Source: Sulfurovum sp. UBA1140
Lineage (GTDB): Bacteria > Campylobacterota > Campylobacteria > Campylobacterales > Sulfurovaceae
Assembly (NCBI GenBank): GCA_002311915.1
Contig: DCAF01000008.1
Span: forward strand, 1,735-65,734
DNA length: 64,000 nt
Direction of reading: 5' to 3'
A program made the translations under genes and the position numbers. Below the pieces are notes generated by a model. It did no database searches. It was not told the DNA's origin and worked only from the letters and a program-made list of their open reading frames with translations. Position 1 is the first letter of the stretch. Each line of letters begins with the position of its first letter. Shown here piece by piece: positions 52,217 to 57,922 of the stretch.

Positions 52217-53479
52217 ATGGTAAAAATAGGAATACTAGGAGTTGGAACCGTCGGGGCAAGTGTTGTAAATATTTTAGAGAGCAATGCCGATATAATCGAG
52301 GCACGAGCAGGTAAAAAAATTATTGTCAAATCTGGTGTGGTACAGAATCTCTCTAAAGATAGAGGGGTAACAATTAAACTCTCTGATAATCCTATGGATA
52401 TTATTGATGACCCTGAAATAGACATTGTTGTTGAGCTTATGGGTGGGGTTGAAGAGCCTTATGCCTTGGTTAAAAAAGCACTCGAAAATGGTAAAGCTGT
52501 GGTGACGGCAAATAAAGCACTTTTGGCATATCATCGTTATGCACTCCAACAGATTGCAGGGGATATTCCTTTGATGTATGAGGCAAGTACAGCAGGGGGA
52601 ATTCCTGTTATTGGAGCGATGAAAAATGGTTTGACTGCAAATCATATAGAGTCGATTCAAGGAATCATGAATGGTACAACCAATTATATGTTGACCAAAA
52701 TGATAAATGAAGGGGCTAAATATGATGAGATTCTTAAAGAGGCTCAAGATTTAGGCTACGCAGAGGCTGACCCAACTTTTGATGTGGGTGGTTTTGATGC
52801 GTCGCATAAACTGCTTATTTTGGCAAGTATTGCGTATGGTATTGATGCCAAACCCGAAGATATTCTTATTGAAGGGATTGAAAATATTACCCAAACCGAT
52901 GTGGCATTTGCCAAAGAGTTTGGTTATGAGATAAAACTGCTAGGAATTGCTAAAAAAGTGGGAGAGGGCGTTGAGCTTAGAGTCCATGCCACCATGATAC
53001 CTGCAAGTAGTATGATTGCCAAGGTGGATGGTGTAATGAATGCTGTTTCCGTAGTGGGTGACCGAGTGGGTGAGACCATGTATTACGGAGCAGGAGCAGG
53101 TGGAGATGCCACAGCTTCAGCGGTGATTGCCGATATTATAGACATTGTTCGTGGAAATCATGGACCAATGTTGGGTTATAAAAAAGGGTTAAAGAGTCAT
53201 CTAACACTTCTTCCAAAAGGGGAGATAACCACACACTACTATCTTCGATTAGAAGTAGATGATCGTTCAGGTGTGTTGGCTTCAATCACCAAAGAGCTTG
53301 AAAAATTTGACATTTCGATAGAGTCAATGTTGCAACAACCACACGCTACCGATACCCGTGTTAAACTGCTCTTTACAACCCACGAGTGTCAAGAGGCTAA
53401 AATACAAGAGGCGATGGATGTATTAAAGGCTTTGGATTGTGTACATGGTGAGATTGCTATGATGAGGATTGAAAAGTAA
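52217..53479 (+). CDS. hom: Homoserine dehydrogenase with ACT domain
   Basis: GVGTVG, VVTANKA, GIMNGT, GYAEADPTFD and GAGAGGDATASAV motifs. Confidence 0.97.
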   Translation: MVKIGILGVGTVGASVVNILESNADIIEARAGKKIIVKSGVVQNLSKDRGVTIKLSDNPMDIIDDPEIDIVVELMGGVEEPYALVKKALENGKAVVTANKALLAYHRYALQQIAGDIPLMYEASTAGGIPVIGAMKNGLTANHIESIQGIMNGTTNYMLTKMINEGAKYDEILKEAQDLGYAEADPTFDVGGFDASHKLLILASIAYGIDAKPEDILIEGIENITQTDVAFAKEFGYEIKLLGIAKKVGEGVELRVHATMIPASSMIAKVDGVMNAVSVVGDRVGETMYYGAGAGGDATASAVIADIIDIVRGNHGPMLGYKKGLKSHLTLLPKGEITTHYYLRLEVDDRSGVLASITKELEKFDISIESMLQQPHATDTRVKLLFTTHECQEAKIQEAMDVLKALDCVHGEIAMMRIEK

Positions 53480-53480
53480 A

Positions 53481-53505
53481 AAAAGAGGTAGAATATACCT
53501 CTTTT
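53481..53505. terminator. Bidirectional intrinsic terminator between hom and cobD
   Basis: AAAAGAGGTA-GAATA-TACCTCTTTT. Confidence 0.75.
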
Positions 53506-53510
53506 ATTCA

Positions 53511-54524
53511 TTAAAGATTATCTTTTAATGCCTCTTCTAAAACCTTTAAAGCCTTTTTACTCTTTACAGCAATTCTAACATACTGCTCATCTAAAAAATC
53601 AAAATTAGAGCAGTCTCTTATCATTATTTTATAGGGGATTAAAAGCTCTTGAAACTCTTTTGCTGTTAGATTATTGAGTTGAACTAAAATATAATTGGCA
53701 GAAGAGGGAAAGAGCGTTTTAATATGTTTTGACGCTTTAAGCATATCGACCAGATAGGCTCTATTTTGCTGGTTAATCTCTTTAGATATTTTTGGAAACT
53801 TTTGGTCTTTTAAAACGGCTTGAAGATAGTGGCTGTCAAAATCTGAAATTTTCCACAAAGGTTCTTGCTTTTTTAATCTTTTAATATTGTTTGAGTTTGA
53901 AAGAATGGTTCCCACGCGAATTCCTGCCGAGCTGTAAAACTTGGTCATTGACTTTAAAATATAGAGTTTATCGTACTGATTTATATATTGAATCGCCGAT
54001 TGAAAATTGGTAAAATCCAAAAAAGACTCATCAATCAAAATGGTACACTTCTGCTCTATCCAGCGTTGTATCAGTTTTTCTATATTATAAAATTTACCAT
54101 CAGGAGTTGAAGGGTTTACAAAAATAACCAGTGAGTTTGTGGGTACTTTTTGCTCTAATTTTCCAAATCTATTAATGGTGGTTGTTCTGTAATTAAAAAG
54201 TTCAGAGGCTTTTTTGTATTCTAAATAAGCAGGTGAATAGATTACCGATGTTTGCAGATTGAAAAATCTAAAGAGCGAAAAGATAGCCGAACTTCCCCCA
54301 TTAAATAGCTCAATTTGATTGGTATTTACCCCATAGAGTGTGGCAATAGAGCTGTATAGTTTGTCATAATTAGGGTAGTTGGATATGTTTAAATGGTTAA
54401 AGTCTATATTGGTTTTAGGTTGAATAAAATTGATATTAGAAGAGAGGTCAATTACCTCTTCTACGGGGCATTTTATACGAGAGGCAAATTGTAAAATATC
54501 CCCACCATGTTGAAATTGGGTCAT
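53511..54524 (-). CDS. cobD: L-threonine-O-3-phosphate decarboxylase-like PLP enzyme
   Basis: HGG, DLSSNIN, NP.TPDG, DESF and SMTKFY..G.RVG motifs, in cob context. Confidence 0.8.
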   Translation of the reverse strand: MTQFQHGGDILQFASRIKCPVEEVIDLSSNINFIQPKTNIDFNHLNISNYPNYDKLYSSIATLYGVNTNQIELFNGGSSAIFSLFRFFNLQTSVIYSPAYLEYKKASELFNYRTTTINRFGKLEQKVPTNSLVIFVNPSTPDGKFYNIEKLIQRWIEQKCTILIDESFLDFTNFQSAIQYINQYDKLYILKSMTKFYSSAGIRVGTILSNSNNIKRLKKQEPLWKISDFDSHYLQAVLKDQKFPKISKEINQQNRAYLVDMLKASKHIKTLFPSSANYILVQLNNLTAKEFQELLIPYKIMIRDCSNFDFLDEQYVRIAVKSKKALKVLEEALKDNL

Positions 54525-55015
54525 TTTAATTGACTATTTAATCCCAATTTTACTTCATAAACTTCGTCACATATTTTGGCTAAATATTGCCCAATAATCC
54601 CTGTTAAATCTACAAATTTACGACTTTTGGCATCTATTGGAATAACTCCTGAACCAACATTGTTGAGTACAAAAACAGTATGAGCATCTATTTGGGCTAA
54701 AGTATCCAGTTGTATTAAAAGTTCCTCTTCACTTTTATCAAGATTGTTGAGTATCCACATCGAGATACAGTCAACCAAATAGGTCTGATTGGGCTTAATA
54801 ACTTTAGATAAATCAGATGGCTCTTCAATGGTAATAAACTTTTTTTGGCGTTGTGACTGATGCTTGTTTATTCGTTTTTCCATCTCACCATCTCCATAGC
54901 TATTGTTGTAGGTGGCGATATAGTAGGGCTTATTCTCTGTTGATAATTGTAAAGCTTTCTCTTCTGCCAATCGACTTTTACCCGATTTTTGTCCTCCATA
55001 ATATAGAATTTTCAT
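54521..55015 (-). CDS. cobU: Adenosylcobinamide kinase / cobinamide-phosphate guanylyltransferase
   Basis: GGQKSGKSRLAE, YIAT, HQ.QR, DCISMW, N.VGSG..P and F.D..G motifs. Confidence 0.92.
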   Translation of the reverse strand: MKILYYGGQKSGKSRLAEEKALQLSTENKPYYIATYNNSYGDGEMEKRINKHQSQRQKKFITIEEPSDLSKVIKPNQTYLVDCISMWILNNLDKSEEELLIQLDTLAQIDAHTVFVLNNVGSGVIPIDAKSRKFVDLTGIIGQYLAKICDEVYEVKLGLNSQLK

Positions 55016-56074
55016 CTATCTTAAAAATTCTTCAACTTGTGCGGTAATCTCTTTTTGGTTTAATCCATTTAAAAATCCATACATCAATGCCCCACCAGCA
55101 CCCACACCCTCTTTGGCTTCTCCTTCGTCGTAGAGTTTTAGGGCAGGGTGTTGGGTTAAAGAGAAATCAAAATCAGCGTAGTAAGCATTAATAGGAAAAG
55201 ACAACATCGCTAAGAGTGCTTTGATATTGCTCTGCTCATCAACGGCAACCCACTTGGTGGTACATAGTGCCAAGTTCGAGGTCTCTATCTCCCCACCCAT
55301 ATACTCTAAAATAGAATTAATAATCAGCAGTACCCCTGCCATCTGTGTGCCACCTGCCAACACCACTTTAATACGATTGTTTAGTCCCAAGATAAATCCT
55401 GCATTAAAAATAAGCATATTGTCCGAGACCGAACCTAAAATATCAAATAGGTCGTTTTTATCTATAATGTTTTTGAGTGCCAAGTTGATGGTTTTTTCTC
55501 GTATACTATTAGGAACCTCTTTGAAGCTACTGCTAAAATACTCTTTGGCATCATACCCCAAAGCCAAAGCTGTAGCCGTAGCCGTGGTGGTTCCACTAGG
55601 AACCGACTCTCCTAAAATAATATAATCACTCTGGCACTCATAGCTCTGCCCAAAGGTAACCCCTTTTTGAAAAAGAGTCTCGGCATCAATATTGGCTCCC
55701 GTATCAATGGAGTCACTAGAATTTATATCAAAGGTGTGCTGTTTAAAGTAGCTTATTTGGGGGGTGATTTCAATACCTAAATTGAGTAGTTCTACAGCAT
55801 GGTAAGGTTTTAAAAGGTGTACGGCTCGGGTAATAAGAGCAGGGGTCGGAACCCCTTTGGGCGTTTTAGCAATACCCTCTAGGCTTCGTACCTCTCCTGT
55901 ACAGACAAACTCACTATCAAGCGTGGGTGTTAAGTGAATCATATTGGGGATTCCTGCTTGGGTTATCCCCTTAATATTGGTTGTTTTGGTATTGCTTAAA
56001 GCCAACATAAAAGTAGCTCTTTTACCCCGTAGTGACTCTATAAAATCAATGTTTCCTGTTAATATTTTTATCAT
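55016..56074 (-). CDS. cobT: NaMN:base phosphoribosyltransferase, archaeal/cyanobacterial-type CobT
   Basis: ITQAG, PTLD.E, PTPALIT, GESVP.GTTTA, AGGTQM and KEGVGAGG motifs. Confidence 0.85.
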   Translation of the reverse strand: MIKILTGNIDFIESLRGKRATFMLALSNTKTTNIKGITQAGIPNMIHLTPTLDSEFVCTGEVRSLEGIAKTPKGVPTPALITRAVHLLKPYHAVELLNLGIEITPQISYFKQHTFDINSSDSIDTGANIDAETLFQKGVTFGQSYECQSDYIILGESVPSGTTTATATALALGYDAKEYFSSSFKEVPNSIREKTINLALKNIIDKNDLFDILGSVSDNMLIFNAGFILGLNNRIKVVLAGGTQMAGVLLIINSILEYMGGEIETSNLALCTTKWVAVDEQSNIKALLAMLSFPINAYYADFDFSLTQHPALKLYDEGEAKEGVGAGGALMYGFLNGLNQKEITAQVEEFLR

Positions 56075-56182
56075 AATAGTCTTTTTTAGTGCGTAGTATA
56101 GTAGAGTGCATCTAATAGGTTGCTTATTAAAAGTCCCACCACTCCTTTAGTATTTTTAATTTTAATTTCTCAAAGAAATTTA

Positions 56183-56971
56183 TTATAATAATTTGTCCAA
56201 TCTGTCAAGTAGTTCTTGGTAGTTTTTATGGTTTAAATACCGAGTTGTGGCGTAGTATAGTAGGGCATATCGAATATATTCATTAAACGCTTTTAGCTCC
56301 ATGGAGCTACCATAACTTTTTAGTAGACTCATTACTTTTTGGGGGTTTAGCATCTTTTTGTTATAGCACCAACTGATGGCAACCACGGCGAGTTCAAAAT
56401 GAAAATCACCACTACAGGCATCGGTAAAATCATATACTCCCGATAATTTTCCATTTTTAAACTTGGCATTGTCTACAAAGAGGTCACCGTGAATAATTCC
56501 CTCTTCTTTAAGTTCAATGTTTAAGTTCTGAAAATACTCTTGGAATATTCTTTGTTGGGTTAACTCTATCAGTTTGCCCAAGCGTTTGGTGGTAAAAAGA
56601 TTTTTGTTTGATGAGGTGAGTTGTTTACTCTTTTGATGAAACAGTTTTAAAAAAACTCCTATCTGTTCAATCTCGTGAGTGGAAGGGTTTTCTAGGCTTT
56701 TACCCTCTATTTGGGTGGTAATGACAACTTGATGATTTTTGATTTTAAAATGTTCAATCACTTTAGGAATGCTTAATGGTTCAAGTTGATTTAAAAGCAC
56801 TATCTCTTGCTCTACGGTCTCTGTTGAGACATCCTCTTCAAAGAGTTTCAGAATATATTGGTCATCTAAAAGATAGACCGAAGCCATTACTCCATCGGTG
56901 GTAGAAAGAAGTTGATGGTGTTGGTAGTGGGGTGGTAGTTGTTCATGGCGAATGGCAGTTTTAATGCCCAT
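56183..56971 (-). CDS. APH/type II homoserine-kinase-like phosphotransferase
   Basis: Brenner motif HGDLFVDN, GVYDF, and N-terminal GVMASVY..YILKLFE. Confidence 0.85.
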   Translation of the reverse strand: MGIKTAIRHEQLPPHYQHHQLLSTTDGVMASVYLLDDQYILKLFEEDVSTETVEQEIVLLNQLEPLSIPKVIEHFKIKNHQVVITTQIEGKSLENPSTHEIEQIGVFLKLFHQKSKQLTSSNKNLFTTKRLGKLIELTQQRIFQEYFQNLNIELKEEGIIHGDLFVDNAKFKNGKLSGVYDFTDACSGDFHFELAVVAISWCYNKKMLNPQKVMSLLKSYGSSMELKAFNEYIRYALLYYATTRYLNHKNYQELLDRLDKLL

Positions 56972-56980
56972 GGTTAATCC

Positions 56981-57922
56981 TTAAGTTTTTTGACGAATAA
57001 GCAGGTAGACAAAAAATGGTCCACCTAGAAATGAGGTAATGACCCCAATGGGAATATCGGAACTGGTTCCTAAATTTCTTGCAATTAAATCACAAAGTAC
57101 CAAGAAAACTCCTGAATAAAAAAAGGTTGGAATCAGCAGTCTATCGGCACTCTGTTGATAGATATTTTTTATAATATGGGGGATAATTAACCCCACAAAT
57201 CCAATGGGTCCTGTTAGGCTAACGGCGATACCCACAGCGATAGAGACGGCTATAAGTAGAACGGTATTGACCCTTTTAACCTCGATGCCTTTTAAAAAAG
57301 CATTATCATAAGAGGTTAGCAGAAGTCTGATGGCATCTTTATAGTAGATAGCTAGAAGAAGCAGTAAAATACTAGAGAGTATCAGGGGAAAGGTATCCCC
57401 AAACCCCACCACATCAAGCGAACCCATGGTAAAGCGTATTATCTCATAACTTTGTGACTCATCACTCAGATAAAATAGCACCATTAGTGAAGCTGAATAA
57501 AAAAATGAGAGGGCGATTCCAACCAATAGCAGTGAGTTTGTCTCATAGCCACTCAGTCGTGAAGTAATGGAAAATAGCGTTATTACGGTCATCATGGCTC
57601 CTAAAAAACCAAAGAGAGCGACCATTGAAGTTAATCCAAAAACAATGGCAAATGCCGTTCCAAGGGTGGCTCCACTGGCAACTCCTAAGGTAAAAGGGGT
57701 ACTCATGGGGTTACGAAAGAGCGATTGAAAAAGCAGTCCACTCAATCCCAATAAAGCCCCTGTAAAAAAAGCTACCACAATACGGGGCAGTCGAATCTTC
57801 CAAAAGATGGTATGTTCCATGCTGTTGGGGATGTTAATTTGGCTTATCTCTATGGGTATTTGTCCTAAAAAGGGGGCAATGAGTATGATAGCAATCGAGA
57901 GTAGGGGGAAGAGGTATCTCAT
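56981..57922 (-). CDS. btuC: FecCD/BtuC-family ABC permease
   Basis: RLPR, QSLFRNP, LGVASGA, GPIGFVGLI.PH and G.PFF motifs. Confidence 0.85.
   Translation of the reverse strand: MRYLFPLLSIAIILIAPFLGQIPIEISQINIPNSMEHTIFWKIRLPRIVVAFFTGALLGLSGLLFQSLFRNPMSTPFTLGVASGATLGTAFAIVFGLTSMVALFGFLGAMMTVITLFSITSRLSGYETNSLLLVGIALSFFYSASLMVLFYLSDESQSYEIIRFTMGSLDVVGFGDTFPLILSSILLLLLAIYYKDAIRLLLTSYDNAFLKGIEVKRVNTVLLIAVSIAVGIAVSLTGPIGFVGLIIPHIIKNIYQQSADRLLIPTFFYSGVFLVLCDLIARNLGTSSDIPIGVITSFLGGPFFVYLLIRQKT

Follow-up and report, generated by a model that had tools for sequence, protein, structure and literature searches.

A candidate L-threonine kinase of the aminoglycoside phosphotransferase fold encoded in cobamide gene clusters of Campylobacterota

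The stretch of DNA analyzed here, called the window throughout, comprises 64,000 nucleotides of contig DCAF01000008.1 from the sulfur-oxidizing bacterium Sulfurovum sp. UBA1140 (assembly GCA_002311915.1, 2.0 Mb in 80 contigs, 93% complete). It contains an operon of eight closely packed minus-strand genes, running from 61262 to 53511 in the order btuB-btuF-btuD-btuC-kinase-cobT-cobU-cobD. Our subject is the kinase, P0001, a protein of the aminoglycoside phosphotransferase (APH) fold, which we consider a candidate for the L-threonine kinase that would supply CobD with L-threonine phosphate in cobamide synthesis.

The operon and its kinase

The features of the operon, all on the minus strand, are as follows:

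59421-61262, minus strand: btuB, TonB-dependent corrinoid receptor, first gene of the operon (Plug and TonB barrel domains; best NCBIfam match TIGR01779, TonB-B12, E = 1e-79, under its cut-off)
58595-59419, minus strand: btuF-like periplasmic binding protein (PF01497; NCBIfam BtuF and IsdE families)
57919-58614, minus strand: btuD-like ATP-binding cassette (ABC) ATPase (PF00005)
56981-57922, minus strand: btuC-like ABC permease (PF01032, FecCD, 257.8 bits; BtuC and FhuB families, all under their cut-offs)
56183-56971, minus strand: P0001, APH-fold small-molecule kinase of 262 amino acids, candidate L-threonine kinase (PF01636, 72.6 bits; cut-off 23.2)
55016-56074, minus strand: archaeal-type cobT, nicotinate mononucleotide (NaMN)-dependent phosphoribosyltransferase (TIGR00303, 243.1 bits, cut-off 240; NF003372, 373 bits, cut-off 306)
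54521-55015, minus strand: cobU, cobinamide kinase/guanylyltransferase (PF02283, 139.6 bits)
53511-54524, minus strand: cobD, pyridoxal phosphate (PLP) enzyme of the L-threonine-phosphate decarboxylase type (best family TIGR01140, E = 7.8e-65, 219 bits, under the cut-off of 290)
53481-53505, minus strand: terminator-like hairpin at the operon end, common to the convergent hom gene (10-pair stem, then a T run)

The kinase gene begins 9 nucleotides after btuC and is separated from cobT by 108 nucleotides; cobT in turn abuts cobU, and cobU and cobD overlap by 4 nucleotides. Such an arrangement is not due to chance, since the same linkage recurs in relatives. An earlier note on this DNA (hereafter the original prediction) had placed a kinase with HGDLF.DN and YDF motifs between btuC and cobT-cobU-cobD on the same strand, and the open reading frames (ORFs), families and motifs agree with that description. 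The Pfam scan gave no match for the window cobT. No cobalamin riboswitch was detected at gathering score in the window, nor 5' of btuB (61263-61636) at E values up to 1.

P0001 contains the motifs IIHGDLFVDN (residues 160-168) and VYDF (residues 179-182). Its catalytic-loop residues, the DF(G) aspartate and the beta-3 lysine - that is, K42, H161, D163, N168 and D181 - are invariant in the family (30/30 and 32/32 members). The AlphaFold2 (AF2) model has a bilobal kinase fold, with a predicted local distance difference test score (pLDDT) of 94.7 and a predicted template modeling score (pTM) of 0.91. Its best Foldseek match is 2PPQ (TMq 0.83, E = 1.8e-14), followed by the APH(3') and APH(2'') aminoglycoside kinases (0.6-0.68), and 2PPQ is also the best match of the family profile among PDB sequences (E = 4.8e-24). 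A Pfam scan detected no GHMP domain in P0001. The family is small, as an exhaustive HMMER search of 1.84 billion proteins yielded 40 representative clusters at E < 1e-30. Source labels among the homologues are Sulfurovaceae, Sulfurovum, Arcobacteraceae and Campylobacterota, and their public names are 'phosphotransferase' or, for several named by the Joint Genome Institute (JGI), 'homoserine kinase type II'.

Relationship to homoserine kinases

The known system that P0001 most resembles is the type II homoserine kinase, ThrB_alt (TIGR00938 / NF003558; 2PPQ, from Agrobacterium tumefaciens). The two have the same fold, IHxDLFxDN loop and DF motif, and P0001 is predicted to act, as ThrB_alt does on homoserine, on a small hydroxy-amino acid. 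The P0001 family descends from the same stock as the type II homoserine kinases, but differs from them in several respects. P0001 scores 96.8 bits against NF003558 (cut-off 271) and 61.1 bits against TIGR00938 (cut-off 255.9), about a third or less of the cut-offs, and members of its family, at about 260 amino acids, are about 50 residues shorter than type II ThrB (about 310-320). A contig search with the pattern IH[GA]D[LI]FxDN recovered mostly type II ThrB of Pseudomonadota, along with five true family members, and the ThrB loci were reused as an outgroup clade. In the resulting tree, the cob-linked kinase family forms a clade apart from type II ThrB, with a Shimodaira-Hasegawa-like approximate likelihood ratio test (SH-aLRT) support of 100, and of 95 in the tree that includes the fusion proteins described below.

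The same separation is visible at individual residues. Seven positions that are near-invariant in type II ThrB (N30, N32, T42, D188, N199, E225 and R239; 79-99% conserved) differ in the kinase family, a loss that fits a changed substrate; at the beta-3 position, the kinase family has K42 where type II ThrB has a threonine. H112, D167, Y220 and R244 are common to both. The original prediction had described the fold as 'type II ThrB/APH'. The APH part of that label is borne out by PF01636, the AF2 model and the match to 2PPQ, whereas the type II ThrB part is contradicted by scores far under the cut-offs and by the separate clade.

We then consider which homoserine kinase serves the genome itself. 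A genome-wide search for the GHMP domain (PF00288) returned three genes, one thrB and two ispE copies, and therefore neither PduX nor BluE, the GHMP-type L-threonine kinases, was found in the genome by this search. The GHMP thrB lies on contig C72 (TIGR00191, 262 bits; cut-off 168), so P0001 is not the only homoserine kinase candidate of its genome. Indeed, unlike type II ThrB, the P0001 family is encoded in cob clusters of genomes that already have a GHMP thrB. Among ten relatives checked for GHMP genes, eight have two matches with ORF sizes that fit thrB and ispE (by size alone), and in G159 and G277 there is a third match besides two. Further APH-family genes of the Sulfurovum genome encode an AmgK-like kinase and a methylthioribose kinase.

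These data bear on the alternative that P0001 is an ordinary second homoserine kinase of threonine biosynthesis which happens to lie beside a homoserine dehydrogenase gene. Type II homoserine kinase models are its best NCBIfam matches, some homologues are named accordingly by JGI, and hom (52217-53479) is convergent to cobD. Yet the scores far under the cut-offs, the separate clade, the shorter length and the seven differing positions all speak against it, as does the presence of a GHMP thrB, and we regard it as very improbable. A meaningful link between hom and the operon was likewise rejected: the gene is convergent to cobD with a terminator between them, and of 27 cob-linked loci (see below), only one has hom within 3 kb of the kinase gene, on the opposite strand.

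The two ispE copies, at C42:6053-6880 and C42:14219-15010, lie about 8 kb apart and could be duplicates or result from faulty assembly or binning.

Gene neighborhoods, phyletic pattern and CobD fusions

The Sulfurovum genome has an anaerobic-type cbi cluster on contig C15 (cbiM-K-L-C-D-ET-F-G-H-A) and cobQ-cbiB-cobS on contig C53; its gene content is thus that of an apparent de novo producer of cobamides, which needs aminopropanol phosphate for CbiB. The neighborhoods of 32 homologues of P0001, about 19 kb in each case, were annotated using the Btu and Cob proteins of this genome. Of the 32 homologues, 27 lie in cob clusters, representing five or more Campylobacterota families and six or more gene orders: btuC-kinase-cobT, cbiB-kinase-cobS, cbiB-kinase-cobD, kinase-cobD-cbiB, cobT-kinase divergent from cobD-cbiB, and cobD-kinase-btuC. 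The partner most often found within 3 kb of the kinase gene across the 27 cob-linked loci is cobD (26 loci), followed by cbiB (16), cobT (15), cobU (14), btuC (13) and cobQ (13). Four loci (L040, L058, L059 and L060) have a minimal kinase-cobD-cbiB module, which corresponds to the linker arm of the pathway.

A phyletic search, with PF03186 for CbiB, of 301 Campylobacterota genomes of at least 90% completeness gave a similar picture. The kinase is present in 25 genomes and cbiB in 28; both are found in 24, and neither in 272. By genus, the kinase occurs in 14 of 58 and cbiB in 16 of 58. In the sole genome with the kinase and no cbiB, the kinase gene adjoins cobD right where a contig begins. Four genomes have cbiB only (G277, G070, G010 and G268), and in the first of these a more distant kinase homologue was picked up with the family profile.

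In Spirochaetota the association extends to gene fusion. Three Spirochaetota-labelled clusters, P0172 (637 amino acids), P0270 (658) and P0325 (634), consist of proteins in which the kinase family is joined to a full-length CobD; P0271, the partial cluster mate of P0325, is also labelled Spirochaetota. P0172 (L150:10001-11914), recovered by the exhaustive HMMER search, starts with an APH domain, and its C-terminal part is CobD (TIGR01140 positions 1-330). Its kinase half is 31% identical to the entire P0001 (E = 2e-38), and its CobD half is 47% identical to the entire window CobD (E = 2e-106), an alignment that takes in the PLP-lysine region SK(F)Y. P0172 and P0270 (L155:8001-9977) are 74% identical and come from different assemblies and contexts. 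With the same architecture in three clusters, of which P0172 and P0270 differ in assembly and context, an assembly artefact is unlikely. In the tree, the fused kinase domains fall within the clade of cob-linked Campylobacterota proteins (SH-aLRT 95) and not with the type II homoserine kinases. Upstream of the P0172 fusion lie a btuB-like gene and an AdoCbl-II riboswitch (L150:6814-6888, above the Rfam gathering score), the only riboswitch among the loci scanned. The same upstream region also holds an ORF of 187 amino acids (L150:9244-9807).

On genomic grounds, then, the kinase is coupled to CobD. The association with cob genes implied by the original prediction holds in each of these comparisons, with cobD no more than 3 kb away in 26 of the 27 loci, cbiB in 24 of the 25 genomes that have the kinase, and the fusion to CobD.

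Coupling to CobD also helps to judge two alternatives in which the kinase would belong to another step of cobamide metabolism. Choline and ethanolamine kinases have the APH fold, as does a mycobacterial (S)-1-amino-2-propanol kinase, and the window operon is built around the corrinoid uptake genes btuBFDC, which suggests salvage; P0001 could accordingly be an amino-alcohol kinase that phosphorylates free (R)-1-amino-2-propanol or ethanolamine directly, as a salvage of linker precursors rather than a step before CobD. Direct synthesis of aminopropanol phosphate would, however, make CobD redundant, and CobD is both the most constant partner of the kinase and the one to which it is fused. Moreover, the nearest characterized relatives of P0001 are homoserine kinases, not choline or ethanolamine kinases, and it has kept R244 and D167, common to type II ThrB. 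We consider this alternative improbable.

The second alternative takes its cue from cobT, which stands directly beside the kinase gene on the same strand in 11 loci, the window included, and from the adjoining corrinoid import genes. The substrate could then be another B12-related compound - the alpha-riboside of a lower base, in a CblS-like salvage, or cobinamide - or the kinase could be regulatory. CobT yields the phosphorylated riboside directly, though, and the cobinamide kinase CobU is already present. The minimal kinase-cobD-cbiB modules L040, L058 and L060 have no cobT nearby, and the fusion partner is CobD, not CobT. All this leaves the second alternative about as unlikely as the first.

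In the cbi cluster of the Sulfurovum genome, ORFs of 329, 278 and 496 amino acids split the genes between cbiG and cbiH (C15:34317-37809, equivalent to L156:7818-11310). Those of 329 and 496 amino acids begin with FxGxG-type motifs like those of DNA cytosine methyltransferases, and the insert may be a restriction-modification module.

Predicted reaction and relation to known L-threonine kinases

The reading that we favor is that P0001 is a non-orthologous L-threonine kinase supplying L-threonine phosphate to CobD, a known reaction that would be carried out by a new enzyme family. We put its probability at roughly 0.7, on the strength of sequence comparison and genomic context. P0001 would phosphorylate free L-threonine to L-threonine-O-3-phosphate in an ATP-dependent manner (EC 2.7.1.177), the substrate being the predicted element; the probably co-transcribed CobD would decarboxylate the product to (R)-1-amino-2-propanol O-2-phosphate, and CbiB would join this aminopropanol phosphate to adenosylcobyric acid, giving the linker of the cobamide nucleotide loop. 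In doing so, P0001 would replace the GHMP-fold enzymes PduX and BluE, which the lineage lacks. Within the protein, D163 would be the catalytic base, K42/E56 and N168/D181 the probable ATP-Mg ligands, and D167/R244, residues common to homoserine kinases, the putative ligands of the amino acid; such ligand-binding roles for D167 and R244, as for Y220 and H112, are suggested by conservation. The central claim of the original prediction, a non-orthologous, non-GHMP kinase predicted to feed CobD, thus withstands comparison both with the homoserine kinases and with the distribution of cob genes.

Its corollary, that kinase specificity decides between cobamides and norcobamides, fares differently. 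The CobD homologue of Sulfurospirillum multivorans, SMUL_1544, reportedly uses L-serine phosphate to make norcobamides. P0001 could by analogy be an L-serine kinase, or a promiscuous kinase of serine and threonine, with norcobamides or mixed linkers as the outcome, and the window CobD does score below the TIGR01140 cut-off (219 versus 290 bits). That CobD nevertheless aligns over its full length with the Salmonella enterica enzyme (1LC5, E = 1.4e-24), its match to SMUL_1544 (6OUX) being weaker and covering half the length (E = 2.7e-15), and shares 25% identity with the SMUL_1544 orthologue. Serine biosynthesis, moreover, already provides phosphoserine as an intermediate, which makes a dedicated kinase unnecessary.

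The genome that carries SMUL_1544 offers a further comparison. G070 has reductive dehalogenase genes and the order cbiB, cobD-like, cobU, cbiP, cobT, which matches the published Sulfurospirillum organohalide-respiration region (PMC7755780); according to a title cited in PMC6461909, SMUL_1544 governs norcobamide synthesis in S. multivorans. The CobD homologue of G070 is near-identical to SMUL_1544 (878.7 bits to 6OUX), and no kinase homologue was found in this genome, including by the family profile search. The norcobamide corollary is left without support, given a window CobD closer to 1LC5, the ready supply of phosphoserine and an SMUL_1544-bearing genome without the kinase, and a serine kinase has in our view only a slim chance of being correct, slightly below that of the two salvage-type alternatives.

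Several observations weigh against the proposal that P0001 and its relatives are L-threonine kinases dedicated to CobD. The kinase gene adjoins cobT in 11 loci and cobD in only 8. Five homologues lie outside cob clusters (L050, L051, L053, L062 and L139), and relatives of 280-300 amino acids (P0149, P0164, P0175 and P0156) have no cob genes nearby, so the broader clade is not uniformly cob-linked. (An aminotransferase beside P0156 was considered as a CobD and rejected, being aspartate-aminotransferase-like.) Two of the cbiB-only genomes, G010 and G268, have cobD and cbiB, with no kinase homologue and no PduX-like GHMP kinase found; the kinase therefore does not occur throughout the lineage. 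Other features also set the Sulfurospirillum norcobamide cluster apart, among them its DBI_PRT-type CobT, and a separate origin, instead of the use of L-serine phosphate, may account for the missing kinase. No cobalamin riboswitch was detected in the nine Campylobacterota loci scanned (L039, L041-L044, L048, L055, L059 and L061). Finally, related genomes are not independent samples, and the counts given above carry no significance test.

Comparison with the literature indicates where the proposed enzyme would stand. A review names PduX or BluE alone for the L-threonine kinase step (PMC7242693), and most genomes of verified cobamide producers have no pduX annotation (PMC6461909). PduX of Salmonella enterica and BluE of Rhodobacterales have the reaction and place proposed for P0001, L-threonine to L-threonine phosphate for CobD (PMC7242693), and are likewise encoded with B12 genes. 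They are, however, GHMP-fold proteins, sharing motifs I-III with DabA, and an L-threonine-kinase motif IV has also been described (PMC10906522), whereas P0001 has the unrelated APH fold and a predicted activity. In Dehalobacter restrictus, CbiU (Dehre_1608) was proposed as the L-threonine kinase of a nucleotide-loop operon in a genome without pduX (PMC4285132). CbiU and P0001 are thus alike in being homoserine-kinase-type homologues in B12 operons, each proposed as an L-threonine kinase by prediction; CbiU resembles the archaeal-type, phosphoglycerate-mutase-like homoserine kinase (TIGR02535), a fold that differs from that of P0001. A title cited in PMC6461909 refers to a bifunctional kinase/decarboxylase CobD of Methanosarcina mazei (MM2060). 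As far as that title goes, MM2060 and the fusions P0172, P0270 and P0325 are alike in combining a kinase module and CobD in one polypeptide. The kinase activity of MM2060 is not known to reside in a domain of the APH type. No description of an APH-fold L-threonine kinase was found in the full-text literature searched, subscription literature being outside its scope.

Somewhat less firmly, though still as the probable course of events, we propose that the family represents a further independent origin of a B12 L-threonine kinase. Each known homoserine-kinase fold would have been recruited to the linker arm, the APH-like type giving rise to this family, which would supply the missing kinase in Campylobacterota that produce cobamides and also, fused to CobD, in Spirochaetota. 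More boldly, the preference for threonine, serine or homoserine might vary among kinase subclades, and thereby diversify the cobamide linker.

If P0001 is an L-threonine kinase, the gap at this step would be closed for Campylobacterota, a group of major importance for primary production at vents and seeps and in sulfidic waters, and the genomes that make B12 could be better predicted. A homoserine-kinase-like scaffold would have been repurposed for the isomeric substrate threonine, and the recruitment of homoserine-kinase folds would have taken place from the GHMP type (to PduX and BluE), from the phosphoglycerate-mutase-like type (to the proposed CbiU) and from the APH-like type (to the P0001 family). 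A compact L-threonine kinase of 260 amino acids and a natural kinase-decarboxylase fusion would also be available as parts for engineered B12 pathways.

Some other features of the cob clusters were recorded. In G010 (genus g14, Sulfurimonas-like), a cysteine-rich ORF of 147 amino acids and a metallophosphoesterase with a twin-arginine translocation (Tat) signal occupy the gap between cobD and btuC (L143:12726-14018) in which sister genomes have the kinase. In G268, unrelated ORFs of 428, 235 and 188 amino acids lie between cobQ and cobD in the cluster without the kinase (L144:11637-14170), and may form a mobile or defense module. The CobT of the Sulfurovum-like G291 (L039:3586-5295) is 569 amino acids long and carries, fused to the N-terminal side of the phosphoribosyltransferase, a nitroreductase-family domain of the kind seen in the BluB family of 5,6-dimethylbenzimidazole (DMB) synthases. 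This would point to a BluB-CobT fusion and, in these relatives, to synthesis of a cobalamin-type lower ligand. More generally, the CobT of Campylobacterota cob clusters is archaeal-type (TIGR00303, with no match to Pfam DBI_PRT), but the one encoded in the Sulfurospirillum norcobamide cluster is of the bacterial DBI_PRT type (L142:4113-5147).

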